A stretch of DNA of 61,816 bases, taken from assembly GCA_030606805.1 (NCBI GenBank), contig JAUWFS010000001.1, positions 1 through 61,816 of the forward strand, read 5' to 3'. The first letter of the stretch is position 1. Each line of letters starts with the position of its first letter. The notes below the pieces were generated by a model, which was not told the origin of the DNA, ran no database searches, and saw only the letters and a program-made list of their open reading frames with translations. Positions 4,789 to 53,801 of the stretch are shown here, in pieces. The position numbers and the translations under genes were made by a program. This stretch comes from Deltaproteobacteria bacterium (GTDB taxonomy: Bacteria > Desulfobacterota > Desulfobacteria > Desulfobacterales > ETH-SRB1).

Positions 4789-4947
4789 ATGAAAACAATT
4801 ACCATTAAACAATGGGATAGCGCCGGTATTGAACAGCGAGATCGATGGTTGTCTGATGAGGATGTCATGTTAGATGAACAAGGGTATAAAATCTTATGTG
4901 ATAGAACTGACAAGCTGAAAAATCCCGAAGAGGATCAAGATAAATAA
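4789..4947 (+). CDS. hypothetical small protein
   Basis: AAGGAGAGAGG SD precedes ATG 4789. In frame with track ORF 4729..4947. Confidence 0.55.
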   Translation: MKTITIKQWDSAGIEQRDRWLSDEDVMLDEQGYKILCDRTDKLKNPEEDQDK

Positions 4948-15883: not shown

Positions 15884-16029
15884 GTCTAAATAATATAACT
15901 ATAGGTACTGATGTAAGACGTTGCCCATATTGCGGGGAAGTGCTTTCTTTCAGAGATAGTAAAAGTTTTTGCAGGAAGTGTGAAAGAGAAATGCATAAAG
16001 TTGCTGTGGATTACGGGAAAAAATTATGA
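15880..16029 (+). CDS. small zinc-ribbon protein (49 aa)
   Basis: ATGA overlaps at both ends. Contains CPYCG...CRKC. Confidence 0.45.
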   Translation: MSLNNITIGTDVRRCPYCGEVLSFRDSKSFCRKCEREMHKVAVDYGKKL

Positions 16030-24538: not shown

Positions 24539-25336
24539 ATGCAGAGAACAAAGATCGAATATCTAACTCACTCATGGTCACCAATTGCCATGCGTTGTAC
24601 ACCTGTTTCAGAAGGTTGTAAAAATTGTTGGCATTTGGCCTTGGCCAACCGGCTGGAAAAAAACCCGATGATTCCAGAGGATAGACAGGAAGCTTATGCC
24701 GGCGGGAGGCCAGTTTTGATTGAAAGAGAACTTCGGGCTCCATCAAAACTGAAAAAGCCTGCTATTATTGGTGTGGAATTTATGGGGGATCTGTTTCATG
24801 AGGATGTGCCGTTTGAATATATAAAGAAAGTTTGGGATATTGCTTCCAAATGCCAACAACATATTTTTCTTTTTCTCACAAAGAGACCGGAAAGAATGTT
24901 GGAATTTACAAAATGGATGGCTGGTGCAGATGATATAAGCATAGCTCATTGGCCCCGGAGTTGCTGGCTTGGTATAACAGCAGAAAATCAGCAACTATAT
25001 GATGAACGATGGGAAATTTTAGTACGGATTCCGGCAACGGCTCGGTTCGTAAGTATTGAACCGATGTTGTCCAAAATTGATTTAAAATTATATGATTACG
25101 CTGTAAGTTGCGGTAGTCATTCTGTCAGAAAATATTTTCTCCGGTGGGTAATATGTGGAGCTGAAAGTGGCCCGAAGCGGCGCCGTACCAAAATTGAATG
25201 GATCAGAAATTTAAAAGACCAGTGTGTTAATGCCCATGCCCCATTTTTTCTGAAACAGATGGAGATTAACGGCAAGGTTGTAACAATGCCTGAATTAGAC
25301 GGAGTTATTTATAATCAAATGCCGGATATGAAATAA
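24539..25336 (+). CDS. phage Gp37/Gp68 family (DUF5131) protein
   Basis: IEYLTHSWSPI..C..VSEGCKNCW, MGDLFHE, FLFLTKRPERM, ICGAESGP, and PFFLKQM. Confidence 0.8.
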   Translation: MQRTKIEYLTHSWSPIAMRCTPVSEGCKNCWHLALANRLEKNPMIPEDRQEAYAGGRPVLIERELRAPSKLKKPAIIGVEFMGDLFHEDVPFEYIKKVWDIASKCQQHIFLFLTKRPERMLEFTKWMAGADDISIAHWPRSCWLGITAENQQLYDERWEILVRIPATARFVSIEPMLSKIDLKLYDYAVSCGSHSVRKYFLRWVICGAESGPKRRRTKIEWIRNLKDQCVNAHAPFFLKQMEINGKVVTMPELDGVIYNQMPDMK

Positions 25337-26276: not shown

Positions 26277-26384
26277 ATGACCGAAATCGAAGAAAAATCC
26301 GACTATGAAGTTTCTGAAGAATATTTGGAGTACGAATTTGGATACGAACCGGAAGAGAGTAACGGAGGAATCTATAATGACTAA
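26277..26384 (+). CDS. acidic peptide (35 aa)
   Basis: ATG 26277. Overlaps the next start. Below the track cutoff. Confidence 0.3.
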   Translation: MTEIEEKSDYEVSEEYLEYEFGYEPEESNGGIYND

Positions 26385-27159
26385 GGTTGAAGTAACTTAC
26401 AACAAAGATAAATTAAATCCGGTTGTGGATGCAGAAAAAGAAAACAGCCAAACGCTTTGGTGTCCTAAAAAAGAGTGTTATATTCACAGAAAAATTTGTA
26501 ATGCATGTCCAGATAATGCTTCATGCCATGAATATGCAAAGTTTTCCGGGAAGCTTTCCGAAGAGAATCGGCGTAAACGGGCAGTAGCCCTTGATCAGGA
26601 AATAGAGTCATTGAAGACTTCTATCTTCGATAGCTATTATGTTCTTGGAGAAATGCTAAGAGAAATTAGAGAGGGTATCTATTATAAAGAGTTAGGTTAT
26701 CAGTCTTTGGACGAATACGCCGAAAAAAGGCATGGCTTTCGCTACAGAAAGGCAGCTTACCTTATAGCGATAGTGGAAAACTGTGAAGCTGCAGACTTAA
26801 CGAAAGAGGATGTGCGTGGAATTGAATGGTCAAAGATGAAAGAACTTCCGGAGCTTACCGAAGAAAACAGGGCTGAATGGCTTAAGAAGGCTACTGAGAT
26901 GAGTGTCGAAGATTTAAAAAATGAAGTGAAAAAGAGTAAGGGAGAGGAGTCTAAAGAGAAAAAGATTTTCATGAGTTTTTCATTTGATGTTTCGCAGAAA
27001 GAAATTGTTGATCGGGCACTTGACCTGGCAGCAAAACTGACTGGAAGTGATGTCCGGTCTTATCACCTGCAGGTTTTGGCTGAGGAATTTATTTCTACAT
27101 ACGGTACTATGGACGAGGCATCTATATCGCGGTTTAACGATATGTATGGAGATGAATAA
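26377..27159 (+). CDS. putative DNA-binding protein (ParB/KorB-type HTH-like)
   Basis: ATG 26377 follows ACGGAGGAA. Contains YYKELGYQSLDEYAEKRHGFRYRKAAYLI. Confidence 0.6.
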   Translation: MTKVEVTYNKDKLNPVVDAEKENSQTLWCPKKECYIHRKICNACPDNASCHEYAKFSGKLSEENRRKRAVALDQEIESLKTSIFDSYYVLGEMLREIREGIYYKELGYQSLDEYAEKRHGFRYRKAAYLIAIVENCEAADLTKEDVRGIEWSKMKELPELTEENRAEWLKKATEMSVEDLKNEVKKSKGEESKEKKIFMSFSFDVSQKEIVDRALDLAAKLTGSDVRSYHLQVLAEEFISTYGTMDEASISRFNDMYGDE

Positions 27160-32566: not shown

Positions 32567-33811
32567 ATGAAAGTAGCATTGGTGGGGAATGACGGCCGGG
32601 TTAATGCCTTGTGTTGGCATTGCCAAAAGTATGGCCACTCAGTCTATGTTTTTAAGTCTCCAGAAAAACTACTCAAGCCGGGCGAGAATTACGATTTGAT
32701 TGTATTGGTTCATGTTGAAGATAGTGCAAACGGATTGCAGCAACAGTTGGTAGATATATTCGGCCCGGGAAAAGTTTTTGCTTGCAGTAAAGATGCTGTG
32801 CGATTTGAAACTGACAAGGTTTATGGTATTGATGTTGCTAAGGAACACGGCCTTGCTGTTCCACAGACGATTGTTATTGGACCATATTGGCCTGACGAGC
32901 CAGACATGTTCAATGTACTGAAGCTGATCCACAGTAAGATTCCAGAAAACCGATATGTAATCAAGAAATCTGGCCTGGCTTGTGGTCAAGGGGTTAAGAT
33001 TGTTAAGGGCACTGACGAATTGAGACTTTTTTTGGATAAGTGGACGAAAGTGAGTAGTGATAGCGTGCTCGTTCAGGAGTATAAAGAAGGTATTGAAATA
33101 TCAGGCCGTGTTTTGTGTCAGCAGGGTAAGATAATTCCGCTATGGATGACGATGGAACATAAGCGTGTTCATAATGATGACAGAGGAGCGTTCTGTGCCG
33201 AAATGGGCACTGTAATCTTGGCAGGTAGTCGCCAACCGATCATGGCCGAGATCCGAAAGCTTGAGCCCTGGCTGCATAAAGTCAATTACACCGGAATGCT
33301 TGATATCAATTTTATAATGGATGCGGAAGGCAAGTTTTGGTTTGTAGAACCTACCTGCCGATGGGGAGACCCGGAGACCGAAATTGCACTTCCTATGCTT
33401 GATTGTGATTTTGCAGAAATAGCTCTGAAAGCGTGTAGGGGTGAGGTATCAGAAGACGATATTGTTTTTGCTCATAAGGCCGCTGTGGGGGTTGTAATAG
33501 CTGGCGGGGGATATCCGTATCCGGGTTGTTGCTTGCAGGGTGTTCCTATTGAGCTACCGACTGATGAGTATCCTCTTGTGTTTCAGATGGGGACGGAAAA
33601 GAAAGATGGAAAGCTCGTTACTAAGGGTGGCCGGCATTTGGTAGTGGTGGCAATTGGTGAATCTGTAGAACTGGCGACGAGGCAGGTGTACGAGATGGTT
33701 CGATCTAATTATTGGTTTCTTGATGCCTGGTACCGGACAGATATTGGGGCAAAATGGCCGGATCAACGGTTTTCTTTATTTCAGTTGAGCCCGCAACCCT
33801 TCTCAGCTTAA
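32567..33811 (+). CDS. purD: phosphoribosylamine-glycine ligase-like ATP-grasp enzyme (divergent PurD)
   Basis: Collinear with PurD: MKVALVGNDGRVNAL, EHKR, CRWGDPE, GVVIAGGGYP, LVTKGGRHLVVVA, and RTDIG. The GPNTGGMG loop is replaced by GAFCAEMG. Confidence 0.8.
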   Translation: MKVALVGNDGRVNALCWHCQKYGHSVYVFKSPEKLLKPGENYDLIVLVHVEDSANGLQQQLVDIFGPGKVFACSKDAVRFETDKVYGIDVAKEHGLAVPQTIVIGPYWPDEPDMFNVLKLIHSKIPENRYVIKKSGLACGQGVKIVKGTDELRLFLDKWTKVSSDSVLVQEYKEGIEISGRVLCQQGKIIPLWMTMEHKRVHNDDRGAFCAEMGTVILAGSRQPIMAEIRKLEPWLHKVNYTGMLDINFIMDAEGKFWFVEPTCRWGDPETEIALPMLDCDFAEIALKACRGEVSEDDIVFAHKAAVGVVIAGGGYPYPGCCLQGVPIELPTDEYPLVFQMGTEKKDGKLVTKGGRHLVVVAIGESVELATRQVYEMVRSNYWFLDAWYRTDIGAKWPDQRFSLFQLSPQPFSA

Positions 33812-33822
33812 AGGGATAAAAT

Positions 33823-34026
33823 ATGGCTTATGAAGCACAGCAAAGAGCAATAGCCGCGTTGCGAAGTACACGGAAATATATACAGCAGGCGCATGATAAA
33901 GCCGAGGCAAAGCACGATAATCATGGCGAGTATTATATGGATGATGGGCAATATGAAATCATGAAAACGGCAGATGTGCTTTTGAAAGAAATAGACATTA
34001 TTGTATCCGATTTTGAGAGCGTCTAA
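33823..34026 (+). CDS. hypothetical protein
   Basis: 67 aa ORF. Confidence 0.55.
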   Translation: MAYEAQQRAIAALRSTRKYIQQAHDKAEAKHDNHGEYYMDDGQYEIMKTADVLLKEIDIIVSDFESV

Positions 34027-34030
34027 CTCA

Positions 34031-34375
34031 ATGCAAAAAAATATAAATAAAGGTGTTATGTCCTTACATAGATTTATTCCAGACAGTAAAATTCCTTTAT
34101 CACTCAAAGAACCGCTTGTTTTTGGTGATCGAAGGCAGATAGAGGCTTTGCGTGATTTGGAAGAAGATATAAATTTAATGGAAACAGAATCGGCCAAAAT
34201 TGCTGATGAAAAATTAAAATATTTTGATGTCACTATCGAATATGGCGGGACTGAGGAGATGAGAATTTTAGCTGTTGATAAAGAGGATGCGAAAGATCAG
34301 GCCAAACAAGAAGCGAGTATTGAGAATGCTGACATAGAAGTAGATTTTGTGTCAGTGAGAGAGGTTAAAAAATGA
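34031..34375 (+). CDS. hypothetical acidic protein
   Basis: ATG 34031. An alternative start at 34058 follows AAAGGTG. Confidence 0.55.
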   Translation: MQKNINKGVMSLHRFIPDSKIPLSLKEPLVFGDRRQIEALRDLEEDINLMETESAKIADEKLKYFDVTIEYGGTEEMRILAVDKEDAKDQAKQEASIENADIEVDFVSVREVKK

Positions 34376-34563
34376 TAACGAACCAGTCATATTGGGACTG
34401 CGAGTGTGAGAAGAATTATATTCATCCCAAAACTCATGCGATGTGTCCTTATTGTGGCGCCTGGGCTGATGACCAACCAGATTCGATTGCTGAAGAAGTA
34501 GGAGAGATGTTGAAAGCGCTGGAAGCGCAATTTGCCGTTCCTCGTAAATACTTGTCAAGGTAA
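34372..34563 (+). CDS. small zinc-binding protein
   Basis: CEC...CPYCG. Confidence 0.55.
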   Translation: MITNQSYWDCECEKNYIHPKTHAMCPYCGAWADDQPDSIAEEVGEMLKALEAQFAVPRKYLSR

Positions 34564-34570
34564 TGATTCA

Positions 34571-34912
34571 ATGAACCCGATAATTTTGCCGCCTTCTTGG
34601 AAGCAAATATCATCACCGCTTCCATTTCAAAAATGTTTTAGGAAATTCAACGGTCTTATTGTCCTTGTAGGTCAATTTGACCATGAAGGAGACAGATGGT
34701 TACATGTTTCCTGCTCTCATAAAAATAAACTTCCAAAATGGAAAGAGCTCCGGGAGGTTAAAGATATTTTTGTTGGAAAAGATAAACAAGCTATCCAGAT
34801 TTTTCCTCCGGAATCACAGTATGTAAACATTATGAAGTTCTGTCTTCATTTGTGGTGTAACCTGAGTAGGGATATTGTTCCTGATTTTACGAGAGTAATT
34901 GGGATGATCTGA
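34571..34912 (+). CDS. hypothetical protein
   Basis: ATG 34571, in frame with track ORF 34532. Contains WLHVSCSHKNKLPKW. Confidence 0.6.
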   Translation: MNPIILPPSWKQISSPLPFQKCFRKFNGLIVLVGQFDHEGDRWLHVSCSHKNKLPKWKELREVKDIFVGKDKQAIQIFPPESQYVNIMKFCLHLWCNLSRDIVPDFTRVIGMI

Positions 34913-34922
34913 AAGGCATAAT

Positions 34923-34938
34923 ATGCCGCGAAATATGT
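34923..34938 (+). repeat. 16-bp direct repeat copy 1 (ATGCCGCGAAATATGT)
   Basis: Identical to 35168..35183, which is the start of the ASCH-like gene. Confidence 0.9.
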
Positions 34939-34953
34939 GACCAGAAAAGAATA

Positions 34954-35130
34954 ATGAATACAGACTGGAATGAAATCATTACTTTTTGGAATGGAGTTTA
35001 TGGTACAAAGTTCAAGACAATAGGAGCTGTGCTTAGAGCCGGGGTGAAAAAATTCCATACTATTAAGAAATTGGCTTTGAAACTGGATATTAACAGGGAA
35101 ACGTTAAGGCGTAAGATGAGACGGAAATAA
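34954..35130 (+). CDS. small HTH-like protein (58 aa), truncated paralog of 36172..36549
   Basis: Shares the DW....YGT..KT N-terminus with 36172..36549. Lies between the 16-bp direct repeats. Confidence 0.5.
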   Translation: MNTDWNEIITFWNGVYGTKFKTIGAVLRAGVKKFHTIKKLALKLDINRETLRRKMRRK

Positions 35131-35167
35131 AATAAAATTAATACACAGAATCACTTGAGGTTTTTCG

Positions 35168-35183
35168 ATGCCGCGAAATATGT
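35168..35183 (+). repeat. 16-bp direct repeat copy 2
   Basis: Identical to 34923..34938. Confidence 0.9.
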
Positions 35184-35509
35184 CCTTCATGATTACCAAA
35201 GAACAGGTCAGAAATCGTACCAAAACAGTGACAAGACGTCTTGGATGGGCTTTTTTAAAACCTGATGATATTGTTAATGCTGTTGAACAAGGAATGGGGC
35301 TGAAGAAAGGCGAAAAAGTTAAACGAATTTGTCAGATTTGGATTAAATCAACACGATGGGAACCACTTTATAGAATTACGAAAGAAGAATGTGTCAAAGA
35401 AGGTTTCTTAAAAATGTCTCCTGATAGTTTTATAGAAATGTTTTGTAAGCTTAATAAAACAAAACGAGATCGTCTTATAAATAGAATAGAATTTAAGTAC
35501 ATAGATTAA
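35168..35509 (+). CDS. ASCH-domain-like protein
   Basis: ITKEQVRNRTKTVTRRLGW..LKPDD. Confidence 0.65.
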   Translation: MPRNMSFMITKEQVRNRTKTVTRRLGWAFLKPDDIVNAVEQGMGLKKGEKVKRICQIWIKSTRWEPLYRITKEECVKEGFLKMSPDSFIEMFCKLNKTKRDRLINRIEFKYID

Positions 35510-35525
35510 AAAGTTAAAAAACAAT

Positions 35526-36179
35526 ATGAAAAAGATCGATTTAACTGAGAAAAGATTTGGTAGATTAACGGTAATTGAACAAGCAGGAAGCGATAAATGG
35601 GGATTTGCTCTTTGGATGTGCAAATGTGATTGCGGCGTCATAATTATTGTTAATGGGGGAAGCCTGAGAAGTGGATGTACAAAATCTTGTGGGTGTCTTC
35701 AAAGAGAAATAGCAAAGAAAAGATTAACTACACATGGACTTAGTAGCTCTCGAATATATAAAATATGGGCAAGTATGATACAGCGTTGCATAGATATTAA
35801 TTATGAAGATTATCATTATTACGGCGGACGCGGAATAACAGTCTGTAAACGATGGAAATTTTTCGAAAATTTCCTTGCTGATATGGGTGAGTGCCCAAAT
35901 GATTTTACATTAGAAAGGGTTGATAATGAAAAAGGTTATTTTTTAAAGAATTGTAAATGGGCAACGCATACTGAACAGAATCGTAATCAAAGAGTTCAGA
36001 AAAGAAATAAAACAGGTATTACAGGTGTATTTTGGTCTTCAGACAGAAATAAATTTCGATCTTATATTGGAGTAGGCGGAAGATTAATTCATCTTGGCTC
36101 TTTTAAAGAATTAAATAATGCAATCCTTGCCAGACAAGATGCCGAAATGAAGTATTGGAGAAAAAATAATTATGATTGA
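35526..36179 (+). CDS. AP2-domain / HNH-like homing-endonuclease family protein (paralog 3)
   Basis: LTEKRFGRLTV, CDCG...SCGC, YGGRGITVC, and ITGVFWS..KFRSYI. Confidence 0.75.
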   Translation: MKKIDLTEKRFGRLTVIEQAGSDKWGFALWMCKCDCGVIIIVNGGSLRSGCTKSCGCLQREIAKKRLTTHGLSSSRIYKIWASMIQRCIDINYEDYHYYGGRGITVCKRWKFFENFLADMGECPNDFTLERVDNEKGYFLKNCKWATHTEQNRNQRVQKRNKTGITGVFWSSDRNKFRSYIGVGGRLIHLGSFKELNNAILARQDAEMKYWRKNNYD

Positions 36180-36549
36180 TTGGACAGGTTTAATGCAAGG
36201 ATATAATCGGCGATATGGTACAAGTCATAAAACAGAAAAAGAGTTCCTTGCAGAAGCATACACAAGATTTAACCGTTCAGTTACTGAAATGTCCAGACGA
36301 AAAAATTTGTATGTGTGTATCCCTACGCTATGTACAAAAATGAAGAGTTTGGATGTTCCTTATCTTGGTAAAGGCCACCGTTACCCAGGCCCGAAGGTAA
36401 GGGCGATTCTTGCTTTGAAGACCGAGAATATGACCCGGAAACAGATAGCAAAGGTAACAGGAATTGGATTATCCTATTGTTGGATTTTGCTGAATAAACT
36501 GAAATTACCTTGGAAAAGGATACCACCAGGGCGGAGAACAGGAAGTTAA
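36172..36549 (+). CDS. HTH DNA-binding protein
   Basis: 125 aa. Contains MTRKQIAKVTGIGLSYCWILL. Confidence 0.6.
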   Translation: MIDWTGLMQGYNRRYGTSHKTEKEFLAEAYTRFNRSVTEMSRRKNLYVCIPTLCTKMKSLDVPYLGKGHRYPGPKVRAILALKTENMTRKQIAKVTGIGLSYCWILLNKLKLPWKRIPPGRRTGS

Positions 36550-36555
36550 TTACAC

Positions 36556-37248
36556 ATGAAAAATTGGATGAAGAAAATTTTGATAATTAGTCCGCACAGC
36601 GACGACGAAACATTGTCCCTGGGCGGGACAATTTGTAATATCAAGGCTAAAGGTGGCCAAGTACGGGTTGTGGTAGCTGTGGCCGGAGACATTGTTTTTT
36701 GGCACAATGGTCGCGTAGAGGTACCGGCAGAGCAGAGAGTTGAGGAATTGCAAGCGGCCATGGAATGTTTAGGTGTCGATAGCTGGAGAATTGTCTTTAA
36801 GGAGCGAAATTTGGAATCAAGACTGGATACTATTCCTATACGGGAACTGGTCTATGAGTTTGATAAAGAAATCGAGATCTATCGTCCTGATACTTTATTT
36901 TTTCCACGAAAGTCATACCACCAGGATCACACGGTTGTTCAAAAAGCTGCAGTTGCAGCATGTAGGCCGAATTCAGATAAGTTTATGCCTTCACGAGTGA
37001 TTGAGTATGAATATCCAGGTAGCACCTGGAATGAGTCGAGCGAGGAGATTTGGGCAAATTTTTTTATCCGGATTTCGGGTAAAGTGCTTGAACGTAAGAT
37101 CGAGGCCTTTCAAAAACACTTTTCCCAGCAGAGGAAAAAGGAACATCTTTTTAGCATGGAGACGATCCGACTATGGGCAAAAATGAGGGGTAGAGAAGTA
37201 GGCGCCGAATATGCGGAAGCATTTAGGATTTGGAGGTGGATAGAATGA
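36556..37248 (+). CDS. PIG-L/LmbE-family deacetylase
   Basis: ILIISPHSDDETLSLGGT and HQDH. Confidence 0.8.
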   Translation: MKNWMKKILIISPHSDDETLSLGGTICNIKAKGGQVRVVVAVAGDIVFWHNGRVEVPAEQRVEELQAAMECLGVDSWRIVFKERNLESRLDTIPIRELVYEFDKEIEIYRPDTLFFPRKSYHQDHTVVQKAAVAACRPNSDKFMPSRVIEYEYPGSTWNESSEEIWANFFIRISGKVLERKIEAFQKHFSQQRKKEHLFSMETIRLWAKMRGREVGAEYAEAFRIWRWIE

Positions 37249-37931
37249 GAGTATCGATTTACCAGCCTGCGTATTTTCCAACACTCCACTATTTCAACAG
37301 AATTTTGGATTCGGACATATTTGTATTACTTGATACGGCTCAATTCACAAGAAGCGTAAGATATACAAATACGATGAAGATCAAAGGTAAATGTGGTCTT
37401 GTCAATATGACTGTTCCGATTGTCCATACGGGCAGACGTGAAATGTTTGTAAATCTTCTGGCTGATGATAACCAGCGATGGAGACAAAAACATTATGAAG
37501 CTTTGCGACATGCTTACGGAAAAACAGATGGATGGAGAATGTGTGGCAATTCCTTGCACTCTTTTTACGAAAATGAAGAGAGCCGTTTCAGTAGACTTTG
37601 TGAGCTTGCTGTAGATTGGGTCTTAAATGTTATAAAAAGTTGTAAAGTTGTAACTGTTCGTGCAAGTTCTTTGGGGGTTGATGGAAACGGTTCTCAATGG
37701 ATGCTTGATATTTGTAAGGAGCTGGATGCTACTGAATATCTGTGTGGTAAATCAGCATATGATAACTATTTGGATAAAGAGGCATTCAGGAAGGCCGGGA
37801 TCAAAATTGTAGTCCAGAACTGGACATGCCCGGAGTATCCGCAAATCAAAGTACCTTTTTCTTCTAACTTATCTATTCTTGATTTGGTTATGAACGTACA
37901 TGAAAGAAACAGGAGGGCTTTGTTAATATGA
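37245..37931 (+). CDS. WbqC-like family protein
   Basis: MRVSIYQPAYFPTLHYFNRI...LLDTAQF. ATG 37245 follows GGAGGTGGA and overlaps the upstream stop. Confidence 0.7.
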   Translation: MRVSIYQPAYFPTLHYFNRILDSDIFVLLDTAQFTRSVRYTNTMKIKGKCGLVNMTVPIVHTGRREMFVNLLADDNQRWRQKHYEALRHAYGKTDGWRMCGNSLHSFYENEESRFSRLCELAVDWVLNVIKSCKVVTVRASSLGVDGNGSQWMLDICKELDATEYLCGKSAYDNYLDKEAFRKAGIKIVVQNWTCPEYPQIKVPFSSNLSILDLVMNVHERNRRALLI

Positions 37932-38392
37932 AAGGTATAGATATGCTATTTAATTGTGGGAATTGCTTTCGATGTTGCTGTCATTTTACAAAAGATACGA
38001 TGGGACCGTTTATCCGAACAGACGAAATATATCAGATAGGGTCTCAGAATGTTCATAAGGTCAAGTTTTCTGGAATTGATGAACCAATGACAGTTATGAA
38101 AAGAAAGGATAACCGTTGCATGGCTTGGTCATATGAAGAGCACTGCACAATTTATTCAGTAAGGCCAGTGGATTGCCTGTTATATCCTTTCATGGTCAAA
38201 GATGGGAATATGATTATTCATCTTACATGCCCAGATGCAGTAAGAATATTGCAATTGATAGATGCTGGAAATGCTAAAGCAGAACGATTTTACTTAAACG
38301 CTAAAGATATTATCATGAGGGCTTCTGAAAAGTATTTAAGATACCTTGAGTATCAGACCAAAAATTTTCAGTTTTATTGTGTAGTAAAATGA
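37928..38392 (+). CDS. YkgJ-family cysteine-cluster protein
   Basis: CGNCFRCCC ... C.IYSVRPVDCLLYPF. Confidence 0.7.
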   Translation: MKGIDMLFNCGNCFRCCCHFTKDTMGPFIRTDEIYQIGSQNVHKVKFSGIDEPMTVMKRKDNRCMAWSYEEHCTIYSVRPVDCLLYPFMVKDGNMIIHLTCPDAVRILQLIDAGNAKAERFYLNAKDIIMRASEKYLRYLEYQTKNFQFYCVVK

Positions 38393-38404
38393 AAGGACAT
38401 AAAA

Positions 38405-39466
38405 ATGTATCAAAATCAAGATGAATGGACAGAACTAAGCGAATTCCTAAAAGAAGTCTATTTCAGCGAAAGATGGTCTTATTACGGCGGTGGAAAGTTT
38501 CATACCAGATTTGAAAATCTGGCGAGTGCAAAACTGTTTGAAGGACAAAAACAAGTGCTATTGGTTGCCAATGGAACTGTGGCTCTTGAGTTAGCAATCC
38601 GAGCAGCGTTTCATAACACTGCTTATCATATTAAACTTGGTATTCCGGTATTGACAGTCCCAATGGTGAAGTGGGCAGTGGAAAGGTCTGGCTGTGTTGA
38701 CGAAATTCGGTATTTGGATGTAGATCCAAAAACATTTTGTATTCGTGAGATTCCAAGTGATATTGACGGAGTGGTTTGGGTTCATACAGGTGGATTGATG
38801 TCAGCAAAAACAGAACGTATGTTTAATAGATGTCGTAAGGATAATATAACGATAATTGAAGATATTTCACATGCATACGGTTCATCATACAACGGGAGAA
38901 GAGCGGGAACGGGTGGTCATTTTGTTGCTGGTTCTTTCTTTGGGACAAAGGTGCTTACGTGTGGTGAAGGAGGTTTTGTTGGGACACACTCAAAGGTCTG
39001 TTACGATTTTATGAAAGTGATGAGAAACCAAGGAAAAAATGATGATTTTGAGCAGATAATGGAAGGCTATAATTATAGGGTCAATGAGTTCACCGCGGCC
39101 ATAGCATTTGCGAGGCTGAAAAGACTTGAAAAAGAACTTGCTTTGAGAGGGATAATTGCAGAAAAATACGACATGGCACTTCGTGAAATAGATATTCGAA
39201 GTGTTGAAAAAGAACTTGGTTGTATGACCGGTTTCTATAAATACATAGTTAGGACAAAACATGCTCACAAACTGGACGAGCGGATGGAAAATGAAGGTCT
39301 GTCGTTTACAGACTGGGTTCATGATAAACTTTTAGCACAGGGGAATTACCCCGGAGCTGAAGAGGTAGCAGATGGTCATGTGTGTTTACAACTGATTCAA
39401 GACTCAACCGAAAGAGACAAATATATCAATACGTTCAAAAGATTATGGAAGGAGATAAACAGATGA
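38405..39466 (+). CDS. DegT/DnrJ/EryC1/StrS-family PLP sugar aminotransferase
   Basis: NGTVALELAIRA, EDISHAYGS, SFFGTKVLTCGEGG, and NYRVNEFTAAI. Confidence 0.9.
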   Translation: MYQNQDEWTELSEFLKEVYFSERWSYYGGGKFHTRFENLASAKLFEGQKQVLLVANGTVALELAIRAAFHNTAYHIKLGIPVLTVPMVKWAVERSGCVDEIRYLDVDPKTFCIREIPSDIDGVVWVHTGGLMSAKTERMFNRCRKDNITIIEDISHAYGSSYNGRRAGTGGHFVAGSFFGTKVLTCGEGGFVGTHSKVCYDFMKVMRNQGKNDDFEQIMEGYNYRVNEFTAAIAFARLKRLEKELALRGIIAEKYDMALREIDIRSVEKELGCMTGFYKYIVRTKHAHKLDERMENEGLSFTDWVHDKLLAQGNYPGAEEVADGHVCLQLIQDSTERDKYINTFKRLWKEINR

Positions 39467-40386
39467 AGTGCCTTGTAACCGGAGGAAGTGGGTTTGTTGG
39501 CCGGCATCTCGTAAAGGAGCTTTTGGATAGAGGAGATGAAGTTTGGAACTGTGATGTTCGTTTGCCTAAAGAACATTGGAAGGGTGAGACATATCTTCAT
39601 AATAACAAAAGCGATCTTAAACAGATGTTGGAAAGTAATTTTATGAAAGGTGTTGACGAGGTCTATGATATGGGGGCAATCGTAGGCACTGGAGGTTTTG
39701 AAGCTGGCGCTGCTATGGCCTCACTTAGTGTTAATGCTGGTGGCACTCTTGGTCTTTTATGGGTTGCTGATAATTCAAAGGTTAAAAGATTTTACTATCC
39801 TGCTGTGCCGGATGATTTTGCCAATATTTACACGGTAACGAAAAAGGCTGGCGAAATGTTTTGTAAAATATTTGAAAGCAAATCCGGCATGGAAATTAAG
39901 TTGCTGAGATGGGGAAATATCTATGGCCCAGGCCAGGCTTTAATTCCCAGGAGGCTCGTTCCTTATACCATTATGAATTTGCTCGCCGGGAAACCTGTGC
40001 AGATCTTTGGCAAGGGGTTGCAAAAGGTTGAAATGATACATGTTAAGGATGTGGCCCGTATCACGGTTGAATTTATGCGTAACGGACCTTCAAAGACGAT
40101 GTATGATGTGGACTGTCAGGCATTTATATCGGTGCGCGATTTAGCATATTTAATGTGGTGCTTGGCGAAATCAGAATCGTTGGTTGATTATGTGCCCATG
40201 AGAGATGGTGAGGAGGAAATTGTAGATGAAGAGCCCAGTGGCGATGTTTGGTTATCATCAGATATGCCAGAACTTTTTGAACAAATACCCCTTGAAAGAG
40301 GTTTGCGTGAAACAATCGAATGGTACAAAGAGCGCCCCTTCTTGCTAAAAGAGGGTTTAGAATATTACGAAAAGTCGGAGAAATAG
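39463..40386 (+). CDS. NAD-dependent epimerase/dehydratase (SDR)
   Basis: MKCLVTGGSGFVGRHL and the YTVTK catalytic dyad. ATGA overlap with the upstream gene. Confidence 0.9.
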   Translation: MKCLVTGGSGFVGRHLVKELLDRGDEVWNCDVRLPKEHWKGETYLHNNKSDLKQMLESNFMKGVDEVYDMGAIVGTGGFEAGAAMASLSVNAGGTLGLLWVADNSKVKRFYYPAVPDDFANIYTVTKKAGEMFCKIFESKSGMEIKLLRWGNIYGPGQALIPRRLVPYTIMNLLAGKPVQIFGKGLQKVEMIHVKDVARITVEFMRNGPSKTMYDVDCQAFISVRDLAYLMWCLAKSESLVDYVPMRDGEEEIVDEEPSGDVWLSSDMPELFEQIPLERGLRETIEWYKERPFLLKEGLEYYEKSEK

Positions 40387-40390
40387 ATTA

Positions 40391-41866
40391 ATGCGCATAG
40401 CCATGATTCCAAATCCCGGAGTAGGTATATTGAAAAGCGATAGTGATTATATAGCGGTCGAGAATATTATTAACTATTGCGGGCAGTTTCATGACGATAT
40501 GTTTTTTTATGTAGTACTTTCCGGGAGCTATGAAGGTCAAGTTGGAGATGGAGATCTTCCGAGAACTAAGTTTGTGTGGTTGGATAAAGAGGCGGATTTC
40601 ATGTTTCGACATGCATGTATAGATTCGGATTTTGCCAAGTATTTCTATGTCCGTGGAGGAAAATATTTAATAGATTGTATATACAGCACAAGACTTTTTG
40701 AAGGGGTTCATATAAGCCAGTTGCTTACTGATTACCGAACATCACACTATGTACCGGTAGTTCTTGCAACGATTGCTCCATGGGAATACGGAACATTCAG
40801 CGAGGGTAGAAAAAGACCAAAAATACAATATGATTGTGCTACTGCAATGTCATTTGCCCTTTGCAATCCGATTTTTTATGGCCGGCGTGATTATCTTAAT
40901 AGTCAACAATATGTACGGCAATGCCTTTCCCCTTATTTTCAGAGAATGTTTGAAAAAACCTGCATGTATACCGATATTGCCCTTACGATTCCCGAAATGG
41001 ACGAAATTATCAAATCAACCCAAAAGTACAAAAAGTTCACCCTGTATTACGGAACCCGGTTTGCAACCGTAAAACAGGTAGATAAGGTAATGAAGGTCTA
41101 TGAGCAACTGTATAGTTCCGGAATGGACGTAGATATCGTTTTTACCACACAGACTGGTTGGCGACAGATTGCAAAAAGAAAGTACGTCCAGGATACGCTC
41201 AAAAGCGGATCGATTAGATATCTGATAACCAGTTATGACAAGTTTAGATATATGCGGGAAGCAGCCAGGGGGCACGTATTTATGGCAGCGTCCCTGGATG
41301 AAAATTTGTCCAGTTTTATCTTTGAACAAATTTATCTTGGTCTTATAGGCGTTTTGCCGAACCGGCCATGGGTCCTTGAAAGCCTACCTAAAGAATATCC
41401 TTTCCTTTGGAACAATCTGTCTGAGGCATATGGAATGATTAAGTGGATTTACGAAAATTATGAGCAGGCTAAGGCCAAGATAAATCCGTATCGTAAGATG
41501 ATTAATGAAAAATATGATTTGCCGAACATGATGCAGGACCTGGTGAATCATATTAGAAAGGTGGCACAAATTGGGATTGAAAGAAATAGAGAGATGACCG
41601 GTACCCAGAGCAGGAGCAGGATATGGAAAGAGGTACAAAATTTTGTAATTAGTGAGTACGACGAAGATGCAATCCGATTGCAGAGTTTTCTGAAGATGAT
41701 TGATAAAAGATTTACTGGATTTAAGACAGCACTATTGGAGAAGCCAGGAGGACCGTCACGGACTGTACCGACCAAGATATTGTTTAAGAACATGCTTGAG
41801 AAGATGGGTTATGAGGATAATTGCCAGGAAGCGGAACCGGTATTTGAAAGGAGGCGTAAGGAATAA
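40391..41866 (+). CDS. large protein, possible GT-B glycosyltransferase
   Basis: MRIAMI Rossmann-like start and an E-x7-E-like DENLSSFIFEQIYLGLIGVLP. This is a weak, motif-only call. Confidence 0.45.
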   Translation: MRIAMIPNPGVGILKSDSDYIAVENIINYCGQFHDDMFFYVVLSGSYEGQVGDGDLPRTKFVWLDKEADFMFRHACIDSDFAKYFYVRGGKYLIDCIYSTRLFEGVHISQLLTDYRTSHYVPVVLATIAPWEYGTFSEGRKRPKIQYDCATAMSFALCNPIFYGRRDYLNSQQYVRQCLSPYFQRMFEKTCMYTDIALTIPEMDEIIKSTQKYKKFTLYYGTRFATVKQVDKVMKVYEQLYSSGMDVDIVFTTQTGWRQIAKRKYVQDTLKSGSIRYLITSYDKFRYMREAARGHVFMAASLDENLSSFIFEQIYLGLIGVLPNRPWVLESLPKEYPFLWNNLSEAYGMIKWIYENYEQAKAKINPYRKMINEKYDLPNMMQDLVNHIRKVAQIGIERNREMTGTQSRSRIWKEVQNFVISEYDEDAIRLQSFLKMIDKRFTGFKTALLEKPGGPSRTVPTKILFKNMLEKMGYEDNCQEAEPVFERRRKE

Positions 41867-43027: not shown

Positions 43028-43147
43028 ATATGGGAATAGGATCGCATCAAAGTACACACATGAAAACTGATGAATGGCTTACACCACCCGAAGCAGGGAA
43101 AATTCAACAAACCTTATTTAATAAATCTGTTATGGAGAAAGAATAGA

Positions 43148-43894
43148 ATGACAACAAAAAAACAGGATGAAGTTTTCGTCCGGCCCGTGGTTATGCTTGA
43201 CGTAGATCTTCTTGACAACGCAGATTATAATCCCCAGGAGCAGCTTAAAATCACATTTAATGAACTGGTTAAGAAAATTCGGAGAAATGGTTTCTGCGGA
43301 ACAGTGAAAGTTGCCCCGAACCTGAAAAAGAAAGGGCGCTTTCTTATTGTTGCCGGCAATCATGCCGTAGATGCAGCCAGATTGATTGAGTTAAAGAAAG
43401 TTCCTTGCAATGTATTTGAGGATTGGGATGAGGACAGGCAGAAAGCAGAAAATGTCAGTGACAATATAGTTAGAGGAAAATTCAATCCCGAAAAACTGGC
43501 CAAAGTTTATGATGACCTGGCGAAAAAGTATGGGGATGAACTTACCCAGCAAATGATGAGTCTTGAGGTTGATAATACCATTGTCAGTCAGATAATGAAA
43601 CAGATCCGGCGAGAGGTACCTCCTGAGATGCAAAAACAACTGGACAATGCCAAAGGTGAGATCAAGACAGTTGACCAGCTTTCGGCGATCCTTAACGAGA
43701 TGTTCACCAAGTATGGAGATGACCTGCAGTATGGATTTATGGTCTTTGAATTTGGTGGCAAATCTCATTACTGGATCAAGATGAACAATAAGCTCAAGAA
43801 AAAGATGCAGGGATTCACCGATGAATGCCGCGAAACAGGCGGGCAATTATCGGAGCGACTTTATGCTGCCATGGGATGTGATGAAGAAACTTGA
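43148..43894 (+). CDS. ParB N-terminal-domain (nuclease-like) protein
   Basis: ATG 43148. Contains LDNADYNPQ, VKKIRRNGF, and FLIVAGNHAVDAARL. Confidence 0.7.
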   Translation: MTTKKQDEVFVRPVVMLDVDLLDNADYNPQEQLKITFNELVKKIRRNGFCGTVKVAPNLKKKGRFLIVAGNHAVDAARLIELKKVPCNVFEDWDEDRQKAENVSDNIVRGKFNPEKLAKVYDDLAKKYGDELTQQMMSLEVDNTIVSQIMKQIRREVPPEMQKQLDNAKGEIKTVDQLSAILNEMFTKYGDDLQYGFMVFEFGGKSHYWIKMNNKLKKKMQGFTDECRETGGQLSERLYAAMGCDEET

Positions 43895-48604: not shown

Positions 48605-49312
48605 ATGACAAGATTAGGATTAAAATATAAAGAATGTCTGCATTGTGGGCAGAAGATTGAAATAAAAATAAGGAGAGATTTAATAAGAAAAAAATTTTGT
48701 TGCCGGAGTTGTGCGGGAAAATATCATTCAGAAAAAAAATCTATATTTGATTGGAACAATAAAGAAGCATCGGAAAAATTAAAAAAAGCACTAAGAAAGC
48801 CGCACAGAATTACAAAAGCATTGCTGAAAGCTGCTAAAGAAAGAGGATTAAAAAAAAGAGGAAAAAAAATAAATAGTGATCTTATTGTTTGTCAGCATTG
48901 TGGCAAAGAATTTTTTATATCACATTGTCGGAATAATGGAAAGATTAGCAAATGGGGACAGAAGCAAATAAGTCAATATTGTAGCAATAAATGTAGACAG
49001 CTTGCTTCTCGTAAACCAGATAAATTAAAAATTGATAAAACTCGATTAAAAGAGTGGCGGCTGAAAATATTTGAACGAGATAGTTATATTTGTCAGAAAT
49101 GTGGATGTAAAAGAAAAAGATTGTTACAGGCGCATCATAAAAAATCTAAAGAGAGATATCCAGAGATAGCTTATGATATTGATAATGGAGAAACTCTTTG
49201 TATTTATTGTCATATGAAAGAACATCCAAAATTAAAAAATTTCATATTGTCATCTTTAAAACTTAAATTGGAGCAACCATATGCCTCGGAAATTCCGGGA
49301 ATGTGTCCGTAA
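48605..49312 (+). CDS. HNH endonuclease (packaging-module associated)
   Basis: CQKCGC....QAHHKKSKERYPE...NGETLCIYCHMKEH, plus N-terminal Cys4 repeats. Confidence 0.85.
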   Translation: MTRLGLKYKECLHCGQKIEIKIRRDLIRKKFCCRSCAGKYHSEKKSIFDWNNKEASEKLKKALRKPHRITKALLKAAKERGLKKRGKKINSDLIVCQHCGKEFFISHCRNNGKISKWGQKQISQYCSNKCRQLASRKPDKLKIDKTRLKEWRLKIFERDSYICQKCGCKRKRLLQAHHKKSKERYPEIAYDIDNGETLCIYCHMKEHPKLKNFILSSLKLKLEQPYASEIPGMCP

Positions 49313-51557: not shown

Positions 51558-52940
51558 ATGACTATTATCGGAAATATTGAATCTGGCGCCGCAAATACTA
51601 AAGAGGCTCTTGATGCTTTATTTAATAAATATAAAAAGCGGCTGGATCGAACGTTGAGAGCTACAGAGAATAAAATTGTGGATTTGACAACCCGGATCTC
51701 ACTTGATTCAAAAGGAATGTTGAAAGGCCCTAAATGGACGTTGGCTCAGGCCGCCAGAATACAAGGACAATTAGAAGGAATATTTGATGAAAAGTATGGA
51801 TTGGCTGCGCGTCAATTTGCGAGAGATATAAGCGGGGTTACTGATGTTGTAAAACAAGCGTACAATGCAGTGGATTTGCCTATTCAATTTAGTAAAGTTG
51901 ATACCAGGATGCTTAAAACTTTGCAGGAACAAACTTTAGCCGGGCTTATGGCTTTCAGTGCATTAACCCAAGAAAAGGTAGCGCAATCCATACAAGATGC
52001 TATTATCGCCGGTAAACCTTTCAGGCAACTGACAAATGAAATCCGTAATCATATAACAGGATTGAAGGATATAGCAGGCCGCCCGCTTACACAATATGCT
52101 GAGGTATATGCACAAGATGGACTTATGACTGCTTATCGTAGACTCAGTGTCCAGAAAGCTAAGGAGATTAAGATAAACTATTATGTATGGATGGGTAATG
52201 TAGTGGCCGGATCACGGCCTATGTGTGCTCGAAATGCAGGGCGGACTTTTTCAGAGCAGGAATTGCAGGAACTGGATTTATATTCCTGGCAGGGTAAATC
52301 GTGTAGTGTTTTTGTTTGCTGTGGCGGGTTCAGTTGCCGGCATCATTTGATGCCTATTTCTGATAGGTATTTTAATGAAATGAAGGGTAAGCCGGTAGAT
52401 GTTCCAAATTGGTTTACAGAAAATAATAAAACAATGCCTGTTGTACGCAAGAAAATTATTAATCCGAAAACTTTTAAAAAAGACATGAAAGCTATTGGAT
52501 TAAAACCAATAGAACCAAAAGCATTAGGAGATATTATAGGGCGTGGTGGTCCAGATGTTGGGAAACCATTAGATCTTTATATTGGTTCTGCCCAAAAGTC
52601 TGTTTCATTAGAAATAAAAAGTGGAAAAACAGAGTTTTGGTTTACCTCTAATAAACAAGTTGCGCAGAATTACGGACCGAATGTTCATATGGCACAAGTT
52701 AGGATGAAAAATCCAAAAATCTTACGCGATGTGATTCATGATGATGAATTAGCAGGGTGGGCAAAAGCAGCGAGATTATCTGGGCATGATGGGCTGATTG
52801 CACAGCGAGTTCGAGATGGTAAAGTTGAACATATCACTGCGGTTATTTTTAATCCAAAGCAAATTGTTATCAAAATACCAAAAGTATTAAAGCCAAAGCT
52901 TATGTCTTCAGCACAAAGGCTTTCAAAATGTATTATTTAG
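51558..52940 (+). CDS. head morphogenesis protein (Mu F / SPP1 gp7-like) with C-terminal extension
   Basis: YVWMGNVVAGSRPMCARNAGR...GGFSCRHHLMPI matches the MuF-type pattern. About 170 extra C-terminal residues. Confidence 0.65.
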   Translation: MTIIGNIESGAANTKEALDALFNKYKKRLDRTLRATENKIVDLTTRISLDSKGMLKGPKWTLAQAARIQGQLEGIFDEKYGLAARQFARDISGVTDVVKQAYNAVDLPIQFSKVDTRMLKTLQEQTLAGLMAFSALTQEKVAQSIQDAIIAGKPFRQLTNEIRNHITGLKDIAGRPLTQYAEVYAQDGLMTAYRRLSVQKAKEIKINYYVWMGNVVAGSRPMCARNAGRTFSEQELQELDLYSWQGKSCSVFVCCGGFSCRHHLMPISDRYFNEMKGKPVDVPNWFTENNKTMPVVRKKIINPKTFKKDMKAIGLKPIEPKALGDIIGRGGPDVGKPLDLYIGSAQKSVSLEIKSGKTEFWFTSNKQVAQNYGPNVHMAQVRMKNPKILRDVIHDDELAGWAKAARLSGHDGLIAQRVRDGKVEHITAVIFNPKQIVIKIPKVLKPKLMSSAQRLSKCII

Positions 52941-52952
52941 TATTTGAAAAAT

Positions 52953-53801
52953 ATGACTTCTGAATGTATAGATTATTCTCGCCGGCCAGATGGAACCTGG
53001 ACCTTTAAAGGAAAGGATGTTTCACCAGATATTCGCAAAAGGCTGGATGCGATGCATATTCCACCCGCGTGGCGAAATGTAGTTATTTCTGCTGATTCGT
53101 CGGCGAAAGTTCAGGCTATTGGATTGGATGCTGCGGGTCGCTGGCAATACCGATATTCTGCTGGGCATGTGGAAGAAGCAACTCGCCGAAAGTTTGATCG
53201 TGTAAAGTTATTTAGTCAAGATTTAGCAATGATCCGGAAAAATGTACTCAATGGGATAAGAACCAATGACACAAAAGCTATGTTATTGCGGATGGAAGAA
53301 AAAACTGCAATAAGAATGGGCTCACTGGCTGATGTTAAAGCAAAAGAGAAGGCGTATGGATTAACGACTTTGCAAGGTAAGCATGTACGAATCGAAGGAA
53401 ACAAAATTAAATTAGATTTTATTGCTAAAAAAGGAATTCCGGTACACTACGAGTTTACGGATGACACACTGAGTGCCTGGCTGAAAGAAAGAAAAAGTAA
53501 ATTGTCTTCTATAAAAGACAGAATGTTTCCGGATGTGTCTCCTAAGAAGCTGAATGGCTATCTAAAAGAAACTGCTGGAGGCAAGTCTTACACAATTAAA
53601 GATTTTCGGACTTATCACGGTACAAGGATTGCTTTTGAAGAATTGATGCGGTATGCAGGGAAGGTGTTATCTATAAAGGAAAAGAAAAAAATAATCAAAG
53701 AAGTTTGCGAGAAGGTTAGCCGGTTTCTTCACAATACACCGGCAACGGCCAAAAGTGCATATATTGATCCAATGGTTTGGGAAATTATAGGTGGAATATG
53801 A
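52953..53801 (+). CDS. type IB DNA topoisomerase
   Basis: IPPAWRNV, AAGRWQYRY, YGLTTL, KDFRTYHGT, and HNTPATAKSAYIDP (active-site Tyr context). Start is ATG 52953, or TTG 52944. Confidence 0.85.
   Translation: MTSECIDYSRRPDGTWTFKGKDVSPDIRKRLDAMHIPPAWRNVVISADSSAKVQAIGLDAAGRWQYRYSAGHVEEATRRKFDRVKLFSQDLAMIRKNVLNGIRTNDTKAMLLRMEEKTAIRMGSLADVKAKEKAYGLTTLQGKHVRIEGNKIKLDFIAKKGIPVHYEFTDDTLSAWLKERKSKLSSIKDRMFPDVSPKKLNGYLKETAGGKSYTIKDFRTYHGTRIAFEELMRYAGKVLSIKEKKKIIKEVCEKVSRFLHNTPATAKSAYIDPMVWEIIGGI

Follow-up and report, generated by a model that had tools for sequence, protein, structure and literature searches.

What does a phage do with a set of genes for making and transferring a modified amino sugar? 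This question is raised by a 61,816-nucleotide stretch of DNA (contig JAUWFS010000001.1; the whole stretch is referred to below as the window), in which six adjoining genes at positions 36556–41866 encode enzymes of this kind. An earlier reading of the letters (the original prediction) had suggested that their product is attached either to phage DNA or to virion proteins. We find that the functional module comprises these six genes together with a gene for a PurD-like ligase and one for a ParB-like protein. It belongs to a widespread, uncharacterised phage gene set in which a glycosyltransferase (GT), here called GT480, and the ParB-like protein form a core that is fed by variable amino-sugar tailoring enzymes. 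The reading that we favour, and to which we give about an even chance, is phage DNA hypermodification: an amino sugar would be transferred to DNA after replication and would then be deacetylated and N-acylated, following a logic like that of mycothiol synthesis.

The six genes are contiguous on the + strand at the positions claimed for them, and all three of the start/stop overlaps claimed, at 37245, 37928 and 39463, are present, each with the 4-base sequence ATGA. At the other junctions, 12 nt separate the third gene from the fourth and 4 nt the fifth from the sixth, and the stop codon of the sixth overlaps the start of the next small open reading frame (ORF; TAATG at 41866). Most starts of the block have a GGAG-type ribosome-binding site in front of them, which favours ATG 37245 and ATG 39463 over the TTG or GTG starts further 5′ in the program-made ORF list. 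The first gene (36556–37248) encodes a PIG-L/LmbE-type metal-dependent de-N-acetylase (Pfam PIG-L, PF02585, 4e-19; 69.8 bits against a threshold of 28.2), whose metal-binding motifs (A/P)HxDD and HxxH occur as PHSDDE (residue 13) and HQDH (residue 122). It is followed by a WbqC-like protein (37245–37931; Pfam WbqC, 1.3e-48) and by a YkgJ-type CxxCxxCC cysteine-cluster protein (37928–38392; Pfam, 3.7e-7, 31.2 bits against 23) with the sequence CGNCFRCC at residue 10. The next gene (38405–39466) encodes a DegT/DnrJ/EryC1 sugar aminotransferase dependent on pyridoxal phosphate (Pfam PF01041, 2.6e-43, 149 bits against 19.8) with the lysine motif SFFGTK at residue 177. The fifth product (39463–40386) is an extended short-chain dehydrogenase/reductase (SDR) of the nucleotide-sugar epimerase/dehydratase/reductase type (Pfam Epimerase, 1.4e-32; phrog_540 'nucleotide-sugar epimerase', 2e-36) with TGGSGFVG at residue 6 and YTVTK at residue 123. 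The five family assignments made earlier are borne out by Pfam at E values of 4e-7 to 1e-48.

The sixth gene (40391–41866) encodes GT480, a protein of 491 aa. Searches of Pfam, NCBIfam and PDB sequences gave no match to the window protein, which is recognized by phrog_30253 'glycosyltransferase' (1.6e-12). Its homologue in Vibrio phage V-YDF132 reaches Pfam Glycos_transf_1 (36.6 bits against 26.4), whereas gp97 of Arthrobacter phage DanielleIgnace stays under that threshold (22.8 bits). An AlphaFold2 (AF2) model computed from 50 diverse members reached a predicted local distance difference test score (pLDDT) of 91 and a predicted template modelling score (pTM) of 0.90; an alignment of six close relatives gave a pLDDT of 36. 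The model displays the two-Rossmann GT-B fold and matches many GT4 structures at a Foldseek probability of 1.00, with target-normalised template modelling (TM) scores of 0.66–0.75. The PDB matches at E values of 1e-11 to 1e-9 include SenB, PglA, BshA, MshA and glycogen synthase; sucrose-phosphate synthase, PimA and SdgB are other GT4 neighbours, and the nearest phage models in BFVD are 'glycosyltransferases' of Arthrobacter phages (TM ∼0.8). The motif DENLSSFIFEQ (residue 303), cited earlier as E-x7-E-like, contains E304-x7-E312, and G221, R223, K228, H295 and E312 are conserved in at least 90% of the 50 diverse members. A C-terminal helical extension of ∼110 aa has no counterpart in the PDB enzymes. 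The model thus identifies GT480 as a GT4-like GT-B glycosyltransferase, in agreement with the GT-B-like call of the original prediction. A profile search of 1.84 billion representatives showed that the family comprises 427 clusters at 50% identity, mostly of 470–500 aa; scans of IMG/VR for close relatives with the single GT and WbqC proteins found nothing.

GT480 is consistently accompanied by a gene for a ParB-like protein, which in the window lies at 43070–43894 (+) and belongs to a GT480-associated subfamily (phrog_26387, 2.5e-53; PDB ParB/Spo0J, 1.4e-6; Pfam ParB_N 24.4 bits, under the cut-off of 26.3). To assess the pairing, hidden Markov models built from confirmed members were scanned across all fetched loci (numbered L001 onwards). 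A gene of the ParB-like subfamily was present in all 13 metagenomic loci that had been seeded with GT480 and had flanking sequence, usually directly 3′ of GT480 and followed by the terminase gene. All eight distinct GenBank phages found with GT480 carry a ParB match ∼0.4–1 kb away, and the pairing is also seen in Stenotrophomonas phage DLP3, Rhodobacter phage RcTiptonus and Rhizobium phage RHph_Y1_11. In the reverse survey, GT480 was found in 20 of the 26 ParB-subfamily loci with at least 1.9 kb of upstream sequence. The ParB-like gene of L007 and L012 lies inside the sugar cluster (order DegT-ParB-WbqC-SWIM-[WbqC]-GT480); the link between the two genes therefore survives rearrangement and is not just synteny with the terminase. 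No conserved small ORF was detected between GT480 and ParB by BLAST. Inteins are found inside GT480 of L009 (2198–4978, 926 aa) and inside the ParB-like gene of L013 (11407–13554, 715 aa, LAGLIDADG). Box II of the ParB-like protein reads GNHAVDA in the window as opposed to GEHRW in most members. GT480 is the conserved core enzyme of the module, and we propose that the ParB-like protein is its DNA-engaging partner.

The six-gene extent given in the original prediction is therefore too narrow: the six genes are real, but the unit also takes in the ParB-like gene and, on the 5′ side, a gene at 32567–33811 (+) for a PurD-like ATP-grasp ligase. The latter is a divergent paralogue of phosphoribosylamine-glycine ligase (Pfam GARS_C, 3e-18, and GARS_A, 1e-15; PDB PurD matches, 1e-31). 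GARS_N was undetected, the score of 171 bits against the TIGR00877 cut-off of 288 does not qualify it as an equivalog, and no other purine-pathway genes were found in the window. It is separated from the PIG-L gene by 2.7 kb (33812–36555) containing small ORFs and an HNH homing endonuclease gene (35526–36179, +; phrog_374, 2e-78); in L001 and L002 the PurD-like gene lies directly 5′ of PIG-L, and in L007 it is part of the same cluster. We propose that the PurD-like protein is a neofunctionalised amine-carboxylate ligase, which would couple a sugar amine to a carboxylate such as glycine.

The best NCBIfam matches of DegT are the LegC family and PseC, both far under cut-off, and the SDR reaches no NCBIfam equivalog threshold. 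PIG-L accompanies GT480 in seven of the 14 loci of the first survey. WbqC, a Pfam family for which we know of no established activity, has no PDB relative by sequence or profile; it is found beside GT480 in L001, L003, L004, L005, L007, L012, L027, L028 and L054, at times in two copies, and the literature searched contained no phage paper on it. In Streptomyces, a GT4-WbqC-LmbE operon is associated with a prolyl-tRNA synthetase paralogue (ProRSx) and tRNAProX (PMC10404621). We propose that WbqC of the module modifies the sugar amine; a role on the freed amine would fit this operon, in which GT4, LmbE, a ProRS paralogue and a tRNA occur together. The CxxCxxCC gene is part of the cluster in the closest relatives, L001 and L002, and one more copy is found just 5′ of ParB in L032. 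A paralogue of this protein is encoded elsewhere in the window (11781–12122, +; Pfam, 6.7e-5), where it adjoins the 3′ side of the SNF2 helicase gene; in L001 an SNF2 helicase gene lies directly 3′ of GT480. All eight module proteins are predicted to be soluble, and none contains a hydrophobic stretch of the kind seen in membrane helices.

The structures that GT480 matches include BshA and MshA, and BshB1 is the best NCBIfam match of PIG-L (5e-15), which raises the alternative that the module makes a soluble small molecule for use during infection, for example a bacillithiol-, mycothiol- or aminoglycoside-like N-acyl-glucosaminide serving as redox buffer, signal or inhibitor. The succession of GT4 enzyme, PIG-L and ligase is the exact order of the low-molecular-weight thiol pathways, and ParB_N and sulfiredoxin have a fold in common. 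However, the equivalog cut-offs are all missed by wide margins (55.7 bits against 182.5 for BshB1, 28 against 224 for MshB), and no cysteine ligase (MshC or BshC) was seen in the window, the ligase being PurD-like. RcTiptonus, L013, L014, L033 and L038 have GT480 and ParB but neither PIG-L nor a ligase; because many carriers are of this type, the conserved function needs only the GT and ParB. A small-molecule product would also leave the C-terminal extension of GT480 and the ParB pairing unexplained, and we consider it quite unlikely.

The composition of the cassette around the core varies widely among carriers, which among cultured phages include those of Stenotrophomonas, Vibrio, Arthrobacter, Rhodobacter, Rhizobium and Agrobacterium. 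The closest relatives, L001 and L002, have GTs 84% identical to that of the window. L005, with a GT that is 34% identical, has the order PurD-like, methyltransferase, PIG-L, WbqC, GT480 and ParB. Stenotrophomonas phages DLP3 and DLP5 carry PIG-L, SDR, DegT, a methyltransferase (MT), GT480 and ParB in this order, and Vibrio phage V-YDF132 carries PIG-L, WbqC, an unassigned gene, a methyltransferase and a second WbqC. A second GT occurs together with PIG-L and WbqC in DanielleIgnace, L027 and L028, RHph_Y1_11 has SDR and DegT 5′ of GT480, and RcTiptonus has no sugar-tailoring genes there. Other carriers add genes for UDP-glucose dehydrogenase, polysaccharide deacetylase, radical-SAM/SPASM, PhyH or FemAB-like proteins. 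The combination of PurD-like, WbqC, CxxCxxCC, DegT and SDR genes in the window is among the richest. The original prediction knew of no phage pathway that combines WbqC, YkgJ and PIG-L; combinations of PIG-L, WbqC and GT do sit, misannotated or unannotated, in sequenced cultured phages, and in existing records and papers the module genes appear as morons, 'endolysin', 'nucleoid occlusion protein' or hypothetical proteins. We found no published characterisation of the module in the literature searched, whose scope did not extend to Iyer et al. 2013 on ParB in DNA-modification clusters.

Several further genes recur in the neighbourhood of these clusters. An uncharacterised protein of ∼300 aa (phrog_17202, 'family X1'), encoded at 26305–27159 (+) in the window, has homologues beside GT480 clusters in five other loci, in L013 directly 5′ of GT480. 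It was considered as a hidden dioxygenase and rejected: it looks helical, is devoid of an HxD...H motif and shows only a weak hint of DUF1016_N. A gene of the DUF5131 family (phage Gp37/Gp68, radical-SAM-related) lies at 24539–25336 (+; Pfam, 1e-62), and the family recurs near GT480/ParB in L001, L012 and L014. A DegT homologue with 56% identity, at L024 3891–5460 on a 94-kb contig, adjoins genes for S-adenosylmethionine decarboxylase and a ParB-like protein just 5′ of the terminase gene. The 80–100 kb carriers V-YDF132 (L003), RHph_Y1_11 (L022) and DLP3 (L023) have a pyruvate-phosphate-dikinase-like gene and two to three tyrosine-phosphatase-like genes 3′ of the terminase gene, none of which is present in the window.

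Has the phage simply picked up host O-antigen genes? In a search of 5.8 billion clusters, DegT relatives from the same phage group were 72–74% identical and one was 56% identical; the next closest reached at most 39%, and named cellular homologues are ∼29–32% identical. The six-gene island has a guanine-plus-cytosine (GC) content of 0.39–0.41, the same as its surroundings, in a window that is evenly composed (0.34–0.47) and has a positive GC skew throughout. Because cellular DegT homologues are no more than ∼35% identical and the island does not stand out in composition from the genome around it, recent acquisition from a host, the scenario named as a refutation at the outset, is excluded, and the module has long been part of phage genomes. 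These data also bear on the alternative that the module modifies the host envelope as a moron or in lysogenic conversion, altering O-antigen, capsule or wall polymers against superinfection. Its families are typical of O-antigen clusters according to their Pfam descriptions, and DLP3 and DLP5 are temperate phages whose authors suggested modification of lipopolysaccharide (PMC7326821, PMC5834331). However, the module has no flippase, polymerase, lipid-carrier transferase or membrane segment, it has no host-like copy, and the sequence patterns used to scan 185,579 representative bacterial genomes found no relatives of GT480 or of the ParB subfamily. The core gene pair is moreover a conserved, intein-interrupted feature of lytic phages whose hosts span five bacterial orders. 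We consider envelope modification very improbable.

We return to the DNA glycosylation that we favour and to the chemistry that the module would perform. SDR and DegT enzymes together produce 4-amino sugars from nucleoside diphosphate (NDP)-hexoses via a 4-keto intermediate, and GT4 enzymes use uridine diphosphate (UDP)- or other NDP-sugars as donors. The substrates of PIG-L/LmbE enzymes contain N-acetylglucosamine (GlcNAc) that is already attached, as in GlcNAc-inositol, GlcNAc-malate, GlcNAc-phosphatidylinositol and antibiotic pseudoaglycones; to our knowledge, every characterised member acts on a glycoconjugate and none on a nucleotide sugar. PurD joins glycine to an amine via an acyl phosphate. 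Given these known activities, the set reads as glycosylate, deacetylate and N-acylate, which is consistent with the earlier view that the enzymes build and transfer a modified amino sugar, a view also upheld by the family and fold evidence. SDR and DegT would turn a host UDP/NDP-N-acetylhexosamine (HexNAc) first into a 4-keto intermediate and then into a 4-amino derivative of the HexNAc, and GT480 would move the sugar onto phage DNA after replication, with the ParB-like protein holding or presenting the DNA. PIG-L would then strip the N-acetyl group from the DNA-attached sugar, a step placed after transfer because the characterised enzymes act on glycoconjugates. Finally, the PurD-like ligase, WbqC or both would acylate the freed amine, most likely with glycine, yielding a bulky, partly cationic adduct that could block restriction enzymes.

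The choice of DNA as the target is favoured by the ParB partner, by a precedent for phage GT and epimerase pairs, by the restriction resistance of two carriers and by a gene context of DNA metabolism and packaging. On double-stranded DNA (dsDNA), a subclass of phage thymine dioxygenases has been shown by experiment to need ParB-like proteins as activators, and what is encoded most often beside such dioxygenases are GTs (31%), ParBs (27%) and terminases (19%; PMC13229309). Phage GT and epimerase pairs glycosylate DNA (Pyle et al., bioRxiv 10.1101/2023.12.21.572611). DNA of Stenotrophomonas maltophilia phage DLP3 resisted all 15 of the 15 restriction enzymes applied (PMC7326821), and that of DLP5 was cut by four of 36 (PMC5834331); DLP3 has no other DNA-modification gene annotated. 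The window module sits between DNA-metabolism genes and the terminase gene, and that of L001 is flanked by an MT-A70 methylase gene on the 5′ side and by the SNF2 helicase gene on the 3′ side. We also count in favour of a DNA target the intein interruption of GT480 and ParB in relatives, the predicted solubility of all module proteins and the phage-resident history of the module.

Gene product gp141 of DLP3 (L023 2757–3533), called thymidylate synthase in DLP3 and DLP5, was considered as the enzyme that makes the acceptor base and was rejected: it carries the HCxxGxxR(T) Cys-phosphatase motif (HVGCIGGHGRTG), has no similarity to Escherichia coli ThyA and arose from the same family as the tyrosine-phosphatase genes next to it, of which it is a paralogue. 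The arabinosyl-5-hydroxycytosine reported for Acinetobacter phage DLP3 (PMC13326640) cannot be carried over to Stenotrophomonas DLP3, since these are different phages.

The position of the module just 5′ of packaging and structural genes lends itself to another interpretation: GT480 could glycosylate virion or other phage proteins, such as those of capsid or tail, as in mycobacteriophages Che8, Corndog and Myrna, with the ParB adjacency reflecting inherited gene order. Virion glycosylation in actinobacteriophages, reportedly described by Freeman et al. in 2023, speaks for this interpretation. Protein glycosylation is common for GT4-like enzymes, SdgB being one of the structural matches of GT480, the SDR of DLP3 (gp97) was found in the virion proteome (PMC7326821), and a variable glycan would also suit a surface under selection. 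On the other hand, the window capsid and tail proteins have no Ser/Thr-rich tails, the maximum Ser/Thr content per 30-residue window being 23% in the major capsid protein and 30% in the major tail protein; acceptor motifs are poorly defined, however. DanielleIgnace has, besides GT480, a separate GT (gp21) in its structural block, the ParB-like gene of L007 and L012 stands inside the sugar cluster, and protein glycosylation would leave the restriction-resistant DNA of DLP3 and DLP5 unexplained. We regard a virion target as unlikely. Of the two targets named in the original prediction, the context accordingly favours DNA through the ParB pairing and the restriction-resistant carriers; an enzyme that would make the acceptor was not found.

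This last result is foremost among the observations that weigh against a DNA target. Searches with Pfam, PHROGs and NCBIfam detected no ThyA homologue, TET/JBP/5mYOX enzyme or DpdA among the window ORFs scanned, although very divergent enzymes may escape them. In relatives, 92 ORFs from the neighbourhood matched 50 families, and none of the 25 most frequent ones listed is an acceptor-making enzyme; no ThyA was found in 43 ParB-seeded loci. DNA polymerase is absent from the window and from the genes of DanielleIgnace; because the window encodes none, a pre-replicative route is unlikely and any modification must be post-replicative. The window also avoids palindromes, which would be unexpected if all sites were protected: CTAG occurs four times against 74 expected and GATC 201 times against 264, and CAGCTG, GGATCC, CTCGAG and GGGCCC are absent. 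The median isoelectric point of GT480 is 7 and thus not basic, charge and isoelectric point being uninformative as a proxy for DNA binding. The order of GT, ParB and terminase genes could largely be inherited synteny within one phage lineage; part of it may be so because several carriers have in common a backbone that includes genes for pyruvate phosphate dikinase and phosphatases. Finally, the link between the restriction resistance of DLP3 and DLP5 and the GT480-module genes is putative. As a more specific form of DNA glycosylation, we tentatively suggest, as a possibility on the doubtful side, that the base of dsDNA which GT480 and ParB glycosylate after replication is canonical, or at most methylated, with no hydroxylated precursor. 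A HexNAc-type sugar would then be edited on the DNA by deacetylation through PIG-L and by glycylation or aminoacylation through the PurD-like protein, WbqC or both.

The remainder of the 61.8-kb phage contig, whose genes lie nearly all on the + strand, is that of a siphovirus-like phage. It encodes portal, major head and major tail proteins, SbcCD, SSB, a DnaC-like loader, two DNA methyltransferases and an SNF2 helicase with an intein (PT-HINT; 8616–11771, +). At least six HNH endonucleases are present; besides the gene next to the module, at least five further ones lie at 1235–1849, 3846–4559, 4947–5666, 16026–16667 and 48605–49312. At the DNA level (blastn, megablast) the window matched no GenBank phage. 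No tRNAs were found in it, and a promoter/terminator scan gave a signal no better than chance. Its base content is strongly strand-asymmetric (A 33.5, T 27.2, G 24.2 and C 15.1%). Within the head-morphogenesis block, a type IB topoisomerase gene (52944–53801, +; Topoisom_I, 1.6e-24; Top1B_N_bact, 9e-11) lies directly 3′ of a minor-capsid-protein-2-like gene (51558–52940, +) with a weak ART-PolyVal ADP-ribosyltransferase domain; the two products may be virion-packaged enzymes.

If DNA is indeed the target, the 427 clusters of GT480 would represent a previously unnoticed family of phage DNA glycosyltransferases, which has likely escaped notice because its loci are without ThyA or TET genes, by which pathways of this kind have been recognized. 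ParB-like proteins would then assist DNA glycosylation besides DNA oxidation, and the mycothiol-like sequence of glycosylation, deacetylation and ligation would take place on a nucleic acid. WbqC would acquire its first biochemical role and a PurD paralogue a function, and it would become clear why the DNA of the Stenotrophomonas phages DLP3 and DLP5 is 'heavily modified', which is relevant to phage therapy, to sequencing and cloning and to DNA-labelling enzymes. Should the acceptor be a canonical or just methylated base, the aminoacyl-amino-sugar adduct would constitute a class of DNA hypermodification not seen before. As several carriers are in culture, the question can be put to a direct test.

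Among known systems, DpdA-DpdB, the 7-deazaguanine DNA system, resembles the module in having a dedicated ParB-like gene beside a post-replicative DNA-modifying enzyme, near the terminase gene. The 5mYOX-ParB system has the same arrangement (PMC13229309). The partner of ParB is a glycosyltransferase here, whereas it is a dioxygenase in 5mYOX-ParB and a transglycosylase in DpdA-DpdB. As a further difference, box II of the window ParB, GNHAVDA, is degenerate, and the dependence of GT480 on ParB is putative.

With established phage DNA glycosylation, namely the α/β-glucosyl-5-hydroxymethylcytosine of T4, the metaviromic clusters of MT, 5mYOX (TET) and GT with or without an epimerase, and arabinosyl-5-hydroxycytosine, the module shares a phage GT and phage enzymes that tailor nucleotide sugars. 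Clusters for phage DNA glycosylation also lie among DNA-metabolism genes, with ParB-like genes and terminases as frequent neighbours. The verified arabinosyltransferases of RB69 and of Acinetobacter DLP3 (PMC13326640) are GT4-like and have the same PDB neighbours as GT480 (BshA 3mbo, MshA 3c4q, sucrose-phosphate synthase 6kih and PimA 2gej), a likeness that is generic to GT4. Known phage DNA glycosylation starts from a pyrimidine hydroxylated by way of a ThyA homologue or of an MT and a dioxygenase, but no such enzyme was found here. GT480 has no detectable sequence similarity to the GTs of these systems, the search returned no T4-like phage, and the tailoring set of PIG-L, WbqC, PurD-like and DegT is not reported in the papers on phage DNA glycosylation that were compared.

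The bacterial PglF/E bacillosamine, PseB/C and LegB/C pathways resemble the module in pairing an SDR with a DegT enzyme, the standard way to make a 4-amino sugar. In contrast to bacterial amino-sugar pathways and to O-antigen clusters with WbqC, the scores here are far under equivalog cut-offs, genes for lipid carriers and export are missing, and the set is phage-specific and linked to ParB. The mycothiol (MshA/B/C) and bacillithiol (BshA/B/C) pathways likewise combine a GT4 GlcNAc transferase with a PIG-L/LmbE deacetylase and use an ATP-dependent ligase to acylate the amine that deacetylation sets free. Their ligase is CysRS-like or BshC, whereas that of the phage-encoded module is PurD-like, WbqC or both, and the module adds DegT, SDR and the ParB partner.

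The nearest counterparts are other phages. Stenotrophomonas DLP3 and DLP5 (Delepquintavirus), V-YDF132, the Arthrobacter phages DanielleIgnace, KellEzio and Kitkat, RcTiptonus, RHph_Y1_11 and Agrobacterium phage JP1 share the GT480-ParB core and overlapping tailoring genes; they differ in that their GTs are 21–35% identical to the window protein and that none has the full set of PurD-like, WbqC, CxxCxxCC, DegT and SDR genes. Outside phages, the ProRSx-GT4-WbqC-LmbE-tRNAProX operon of Streptomyces (PMC10404621) brings GT4, WbqC and LmbE together just as the module does.

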